Shown here one piece after another: positions 7,901-8,395 of a stretch of DNA of 14,225 nucleotides; position 1 is the first letter of the stretch, and the number at the start of each line of letters is the position of its first letter. This stretch comes from a virus (lineage: Duplodnaviria > Heunggongvirae > Uroviricota > Caudoviricetes). A program made the position numbers and the translations under genes. Under the pieces are notes generated by a model, which saw only the letters and a list, made by a program, of their open reading frames with translations, had not been told where the DNA came from and did not search any database. Where the stretch lies: the IMG/VR virus record IMGVR_UViG_2778261499_000009, positions 1 through 14,225 of that record. The stretch is one strand, 5' to 3'.

Positions 7901-8395
7901 ATGTCTGATGAAAAAGGAATAATAAGTAGGATTACAGATGCAGTTTCTGGTGCCGGAGGTGCTCTGATGAGTGCTGTTGGCGCAGTAAAGGAAATCCAGA
8001 AAATGCAAATAGACTACTCAGTAAAAGAAAAAACATACGAACTTGTCGATAAGCTCATGGATGCCCAACAGCAGCAAATGTCACTTAATGAGCTTTTGAT
8101 GATTTCTAAGGACAAGATTATTGAGCTTGAAGAAAAGATAAATCGAGCCTCTAAGTGGGAAGAGGAAAAGAAAAACTATGAGATGTATACACCTACTGTT
8201 GCTACGGTGGTTTATCGTCTCAAAAAATCGGCAAATACCGGTCAGCCAATGCACTATCTTTGCGCTCAATGCTATGAATCTTCTGTGAAATCCATACTTC
8301 AATACGAAGGATTTGCACCACCTTCTAACCATAGGATGAGATGCCATAGGTGTAACGCCTCCTATCTGTTCCCTAAATCTGCATTTTCTAAATAA
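7901..8395 (+). CDS. hypothetical coiled-coil protein with glycine-zipper-like N-terminus and C-terminal CxxC...CxxC motif (sieB-slot gene)
   Basis: The track ORF starts at a GTG at 7892; an ATG at 7901 has the SD-like AAGAGAG upstream. Contains [14 protein letters not shown], a coiled-coil-like middle ([45 protein letters not shown]) and CAQC...(23 aa)...CHRC. Convergent with N, overlapping its 3' end by 8 bp. Confidence 0.6.

Follow-up and report, generated by a model that had tools for sequence, protein, structure and literature searches.

Which gene takes the place of the superinfection exclusion gene sieB of phage lambda was the question raised by a prophage stretch of 14,225 nucleotides (Caudoviricetes; IMG/VR record IMGVR_UViG_2778261499_000009, positions 1 to 14,225), called the window in the following. 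The whole window is a 100% match to the chromosome of Escherichia coli APEC O2-211 (NZ_CP006834.2, 3625728–3639952, reverse complement), and the gene in question is an open reading frame (ORF) of 164 amino acids at 7901–8395 on the plus strand, with an ATG at 7901 and a TAA at 8393–8395. A model that had seen only the letters (the original prediction) proposed it as a candidate exclusion or abortive-infection gene of no named family. The first proposal was borne out, as the protein is identical at 163 of 164 positions to Rip1, for which defence by pore formation and death of the infected cell has been published; the second is out of date, the family now being called Rip1. With a probability of roughly 0.95, what stands here is rip1 (ring interacting pore 1), an antiphage defence that consists of one gene and is encoded by the prophage. 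It is an already known gene, from a family now named and published in 2026, and comes without new biology. However, an immune gene was found here from raw sequence alone, which supports this approach.

The comparison that carries the assignment is the one with Rip1 of phage HK446 (PDB 9oox, chain L), which was matched with E=1.4e-105. The sole difference is a tyrosine at residue 96 in place of a histidine, in a column that varies across the family. The 9oox structure, solved by cryo-electron microscopy (cryo-EM), holds 12 Rip1 chains and 11 chains labelled 'small terminase protein', and the latter matched T4 gp16 with E=4e-106. The strength of this match validates the query as a T4-type gp16. 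Lambda Nu1 and HK97 gp1 gave no match to the 9oox chains. In its own genome, HK446 Rip1 (gp37, YP_007111990.1) has the same length, is convergent to N and overlaps it, and is preceded by the same upstream leader as in the window, whereas the backbones differ: the window belongs to a P22/Sf6-type prophage with lambda immunity and HK446 is an HK97-like siphovirus.

In public annotation the gene has gone without a name. The RefSeq entry for APEC O2-211, produced by the Prokaryotic Genome Annotation Pipeline (PGAP), carries a coding sequence with the same coordinates (WP_001278766.1) under the label 'hypothetical protein'. An in-frame GTG also lies at 7892, but the ATG at 7901 is favoured as the start because the solved HK446 protein has 164 residues. 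Among the PHROGs families, phrog_1244 was matched with E=4e-53 and is labelled as of unknown function. Searches of Pfam, NCBIfam and PADLOC v2 gave no significant match to the protein, and the matches returned by them (PDE12-like_N, Zn_ribbon_4, PDC-M53B, L21 and others) were rejected as sub-threshold noise. Transfer of the Rip1 name would correct the 'hypothetical protein' labels as well as a wrong-strand record in phage ev099, for a family that is absent from all three of these collections.

The ev099 record (RefSeq NC_049953.1) omits the plus-strand rip1 and annotates a minus-strand ORF of 88 amino acids, corresponding to 8081–8347 of the window, as a hypothetical protein. Read in this way, the real gene would be the antisense ORF, which runs in the direction of the leftward pL operon, and the plus-strand ORF would be spurious. 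There is hardly any chance that this is correct, as the plus-strand protein was purified and solved (9oox), thousands of homologues match it over the full length with the cysteines conserved, and the plus strand is the one annotated by PGAP, in GenBank LR597635 and in HK446. A strand mis-call in the ev099 RefSeq annotation is probable.

Rip1 was described by Patel, McCarthy, Taylor et al. (Nature 651:1060, 2026), whose work is related here as summarised in a review (PMC13434031). It was discovered in a Pseudomonas aeruginosa prophage, where it is located between the small and the large terminase genes. Rip1 alone is non-toxic, the single protein acts as both sensor and effector, and infected cells that carry it become round. 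Escape mutations were found in the portal for phages of Pseudomonas and in the small terminase for those of E. coli. By cryo-EM, 12 Rip1 subunits encircle an 11-mer ring of small terminase, which is touched by the C-terminal half, while the N-terminal part is an amphipathic helix. The complex led to dye release from liposomes, holes in cells and premature lysis (all PMC13434031). A meeting report (PMC12908700) and a preprint on Avs2/Upx (bioRxiv 10.64898/2026.04.30.721860) agree with this account. In the literature, Rip1 is switched on by infection and protects at the level of the population (PMC13434031, PMC12908700).

Applied to the gene in the window, an infecting phage would make its small-terminase ring (E. 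coli phages) or portal ring (Pseudomonas phages), and Rip1 subunits would bind around this ring. The assembly would form a pore, so that the membrane would be permeabilised and the cell lysed before progeny mature. Sensing of the ring would fall to the C-terminal beta domain with its four cysteines, and the pore would be lined by the amphipathic helices of the N-terminus. In the lysogen, rip1 is probably expressed from the retained sieB-type upstream region. Firing on its own prophage is probably avoided, either via convergent pL transcription or through non-recognition of the resident small terminase. The latter is of the Sf6 type (PF20901, E=7e-45) and differs from the known trigger. The small terminases of HK446 and HK97 are 100% identical, and the HK97 protein makes up 9 chains in PDB 8pop.

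Several points weigh against assigning the gene and its mechanism in this way. The experimental support stems from the HK446 protein with H96, not from the Y96 allele or from APEC O2-211, and the mechanistic detail rests on a review, a meeting report and a PDB record. A consensus scan of 7645–7900 gave no convincing sigma-70 promoter; the single plus-strand sigma-70 match, at 7896–7923, was rejected as it overlaps the start codon. The annotation shows a frameshift in the major capsid gene, and the host prophage may thus be defective. Finally, a supplementary gene table of the JBD30 structure paper (PMC11445458) describes gp30 of the Pseudomonas phage JBD30, a homologue, as 'moron gene; blocks phage genome injection (Tsao et al. 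2018)', which disagrees with a trigger that is made late. If this description held for the window, the protein would block DNA entry of the superinfecting phage and would not sense a late protein. Such exclusion at the level of injection is very improbable, as escape mutations lie in portal and small terminase according to the review (PMC13434031), the 9oox complex holds the small terminase, a cytoplasmic late protein, and the window protein has neither a signal peptide nor a transmembrane segment for placement at the entry site. In addition, reviews describe that in cells with Rip1 the DNA of the challenging phage enters and its early genes are expressed as usual, before a collapse late in infection.

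JBD30 gp30 itself has 164 amino acids, is 30% identical to the window protein (E=6e-26) and has the same architecture and the same four cysteines. Together with its orthologues in D3112 and DMS3 it is a Casadabanvirus moron that is antisense to its neighbours and lies just before the large terminase gene. This position fits the Pseudomonas Rip1 of the review (PMC13434031), to which gp30 may correspond. JBD30 gp30 differs from rip1 of the window by its place in the late region, as compared with the early-left region here, and by a less hydrophobic N-terminus; in addition, the escape mutations to the Pseudomonas Rip1 are reported in the portal, not in the small terminase (PMC13434031). The exclusion genes described for Fc02, which lie near the repressor, are different genes.

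The predicted architecture of the window protein is in line with Rip1. AlphaFold2 was run on an alignment of 22 sequences and gave a model with a mean predicted local distance difference test (pLDDT) score of 72, comprising an N-terminal helix of low confidence (residues 7–34), one uninterrupted helix of 52 residues (39–90) and a beta-rich C-terminal domain (93–158; pLDDT 82–89). In the best heptad register of the long helix, 67% of the a/d positions are hydrophobic as compared with 37% for the helix overall, so that the coiled-coil-like helix foreseen in the original prediction was recovered.

For the N-terminus, the proposed membrane activity is supported in a refined form. Small-xxx-small stripes are present (S16-G20-S24-A28 and G17-A21-A25), but the best 19-residue Kyte–Doolittle mean is 1.28, as compared with 1.73 and 1.39 for the segments of lambda SieB, and because of this low maximum the segment is not a classical transmembrane helix. 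In distant Rip1 homologues the maxima are 0.4–1.0 and those of their N-termini 0.4–0.6. Charges in the helix are conserved across the family (K23 in 82%, D/E27 in 68%, K30 in 71%) with hydrophobic positions every 3–4 residues, and the glycine-zipper positions mix small residues with these conserved charges, the S16-G20-S24-A28 pattern being that of the window allele. To judge from the alignments, what is conserved in the N-terminus is amphipathicity; neither a constitutive transmembrane helix nor a glycine zipper extends through the family. Both of these readings gave way to a conditional amphipathic helix in view of the Kyte–Doolittle value and the conserved charges.

In the C-terminal domain, the motifs CAQC (121–124) and CHRC (148–151) had been taken as typical of a zinc ribbon. 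C121, C124, C148 and C151 do not vary among the 22 close homologues, and in 76 diverse homologues with 23–48% identity no column but these four is invariant. This supports a structural Cys4 site that presumably binds zinc, in keeping with the zinc-ribbon-like C-terminus that had been proposed. A significant match to a ribbon family was not obtained: Zn_ribbon_4 (PF13717) scored 13.2 bits where 30.3 are required (E=0.087), no Pfam zinc-ribbon model was above threshold, and the resemblance is limited to the generic two-knuckle Cys4 pattern.

The locus itself was described by the model as the position of lambda sieB, and the lambda map agrees, as sieB (34482–35036, plus strand) abuts N (35037–35438, minus strand). 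Likewise, the gene in the window was correctly described as convergent to N with an overlap of 8 bp, N ending at 8388 and the ORF at 8395. By position, the gene might encode an exclusion protein of the SieB type, which resides in the inner membrane and cuts short the lytic growth of a superinfecting phage. It occupies the place of the sieB ORF and keeps 86 bp upstream, and its homologue hkaP of phage HK620 is annotated as 'putative superinfection exclusion protein' on position. Lambda and P22 SieB (PF14163) have slot, orientation and this upstream region in common with rip1, and both kinds of gene are prophage-encoded and abort superinfecting phages. However, SieB lacks sequence similarity to rip1, has another predicted topology and belongs to another family. 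BLASTP of the window protein against lambda SieB gave E=9.4, PF14163 was not matched at E<=10 while the lambda SieB control reached 1e-29, and, as judged by the Kyte–Doolittle values above, a strongly hydrophobic segment as in SieB is missing. Decisive is the sequence identity to Rip1, which leaves the SieB explanation with a negligible probability, as had been anticipated when the gene was not recognised as SieB. The gene lies convergent to N in the pL region, but this position alone does not confer membership in SieB.

How rip1 came to stand there can be read in part from the boundaries to lambda. By blastn, window 7224–7795 corresponds to lambda 33483–34055 (ea10 region) with 97.6% identity. 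At the junction 7795–7800, 340 bp with ral and orf28 (lambda 34056–34395) are absent. Window 7800–7885 corresponds to lambda 34396–34481, the 86 bp directly 5' of the sieB ATG, with 87% identity including an identical block of 58 nt. The following stretch, 7886–8387, has no lambda match by blastn, and lambda homology is back at 8388 with N. Because of these boundaries, the rip1 cassette is seen to replace the sieB ORF (lambda 34482–35036) and to keep its leader. The upstream region of its own that had been proposed for the gene was found as well, as an intergenic stretch of 256 bp which takes in the 86 bp in common with lambda. With rip1 in place of the sieB ORF and the leader before it conserved, a small, testable addition is made to what is known on the exchange of defence cassettes in lambdoid phages.

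The AT-richness noted by eye was borne out only in part, with a GC content of 39.6% for rip1 as compared with 45.3% for the window and 49.3% for N. However, the neighbouring ea10 region has about 39%, and a reading of rip1 as an AT-rich island is weak, as the adjoining lambda-derived genes are equally AT-rich.

Just 5' of the rip1 start, the direct repeat TACCCCTACAG was found at 7840–7855 and 7874–7889 with a spacing of 34 nt, in the extended form TACCCCTACAG(C/T)(G/A)AGA. Its core ACCCCTACAG is also repeated upstream of lambda sieB, inside or beside the 58-nt identical block. The TACCCCTACAG repeat could be an element of a promoter, an operator or a leftward terminator, and a promoter role of the retained 86-bp leader is presumed. 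A weak hairpin (7870–7890) takes in the second copy together with the Shine–Dalgarno region. An invariant block of about 58 nt with ACCCCTACAG repeats may precede either exclusion gene, sieB in lambda and rip1 here. It is conceivable, if rather doubtful, that the lambdoid sieB slot is a conserved exchange site for defence cassettes and that convergent, N-antiterminated pL transcription silences the cassette in the resident lytic cycle. If true, silencing by pL would provide self-tolerance whether or not the Sf6-type small terminase of the resident prophage is recognised by Rip1.

Further hairpins were seen around the cassette. The hairpin GCCCTTCTTCAGGGC at 8870–8884, which we take to be the complement of lambda nutL boxB, is followed by a T-rich run on the plus strand, and it could, speculatively, also terminate rightward rip1 transcripts. 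Immediately upstream of ea10, the minus strand has a strong terminator-like hairpin at 7671–7692 (TTGCCCTCCAGTGTGAGGGCGA and then T6); it corresponds to about lambda 33930–33951, a position in keeping with tL2a. Should lambda tL1 be located within the sieB ORF, it would have been lost in the swap to rip1.

The family extends well beyond this locus. Of 1.84 billion cluster representatives (clusters at 50% identity), a profile search matched 2,962 at E<=1e-3, of which 1,387 had E<=1e-10. Members mostly have 150–175 amino acids and were matched over their full length. In the phage collection, homologues were found in 52 records, 31 from Pseudomonas and 14 from Escherichia; the same gene as in the window is present in phages ev099 and vB_EcoP-720R6. 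Among 5,426 complete E. coli genomes, the window allele (at least 99% identity) was found in 96 and lambda-type sieB in 169. Among the 15 matches listed of these 96, all are called 'hypothetical protein' and N is found under the same match.

A divergent subfamily is formed by HkaP of HK620 (164 amino acids, 27% identity, E=3e-13) and the homologues in HK629 and HK630. These are convergent to the pL operon and lie between N and cIII/kil, and an extra gene, hkaQ, separates them from N; the positional label of HkaP dates back to the HK620 record. In all contexts examined (window, HK446, HK620, HK629 and JBD30), the Rip1 homologues are antisense to the surrounding lytic operon, and therefore lytic transcription would run against them.

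Rip1 shares its logic with defences that respond to packaging proteins, such as Avs1-3 and TerI, which sense terminases (bioRxiv 10.64898/2026.04.30.721860), or that kill by way of membrane pores, such as RexAB and bacterial gasdermins: recognition of a conserved late or structural protein of the phage leads to the death of the cell. Unlike these defences, Rip1 is one small protein without an NTPase, protease or nuclease domain. The phage ring itself is built into the pore-containing assembly, as stated in the review (PMC13434031).

Table 1. Features of the rip1 locus, in window coordinates.
Feature	Position	Strand	Basis
rip1 coding sequence (164 amino acids and stop)	7901–8395	+	ORF; PGAP coding sequence; 163/164 to 9oox chain L; phrog_1244 E=4e-53
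N-terminal amphipathic, small-residue-rich helix, residues 7–34; putatively membrane-inserting and pore-lining	7919–8002	+	AlphaFold2 (low pLDDT); family pattern; PMC13434031
Long helix, residues 39–90, with heptad hydrophobic seam	8015–8170	+	AlphaFold2; heptad register
C-terminal beta domain, residues 93–158; putative zinc ribbon and ring-contacting sensor	8177–8374	+	AlphaFold2 strands; four cysteines; sub-threshold Zn_ribbon_4; PMC13434031
Cysteine codons C121, C124, C148, C151	8261–8263, 8270–8272, 8342–8344, 8351–8353	+	two CxxC knuckles
5' region in common with lambda sieB (86 bp, 87% identical to lambda 34396–34481); presumed promoter/regulatory signals	7800–7885	+	blastn; alignment
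Cassette-specific leader with Shine–Dalgarno-like AAGAGAG about 9 nt before the ATG; not in lambda by alignment	7886–7900	+	
Convergent overlap (8 bp) between the stop regions of rip1 and N; right-hand cassette junction	8388–8395	.	lambda homology resumes at 8388

Beyond rip1, a gene of 285 amino acids with an NYN domain lies on the minus strand at 9193–10050, between N/pL and cI, where lambda carries rexAB. It matched Pfam NYN with E=7e-9 and, weakly, PADLOC HEC-09 with E=2e-4. Although intact in the window, this ORF is annotated by PGAP in two pieces, a coding sequence of 117 amino acids and a pseudogene fragment. This gene is probably a second lysogen-expressed cassette. Both exclusion loci that lambda expresses as a lysogen are swapped here, with an NYN-domain gene in place of rexAB and rip1 in place of sieB.

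The integration site of the prophage is argW (tRNA-Arg), with intS at the far end. The excisionase-like gene torI (1777–1977, minus strand) lies at the window end, which separates int from xis in the manner of KplE1. Late genes of the P22/Sf6 type are combined with N, cI and cro of the lambda type. A scan of the whole window against Rfam at the gathering threshold gave no match. Repeats containing GCACA with a period of 12 nt were found at 12320–12474 on the plus strand inside the O-like replication gene, where they encode an Ala/His-rich repeat, and are probably the iterons of the replication origin.
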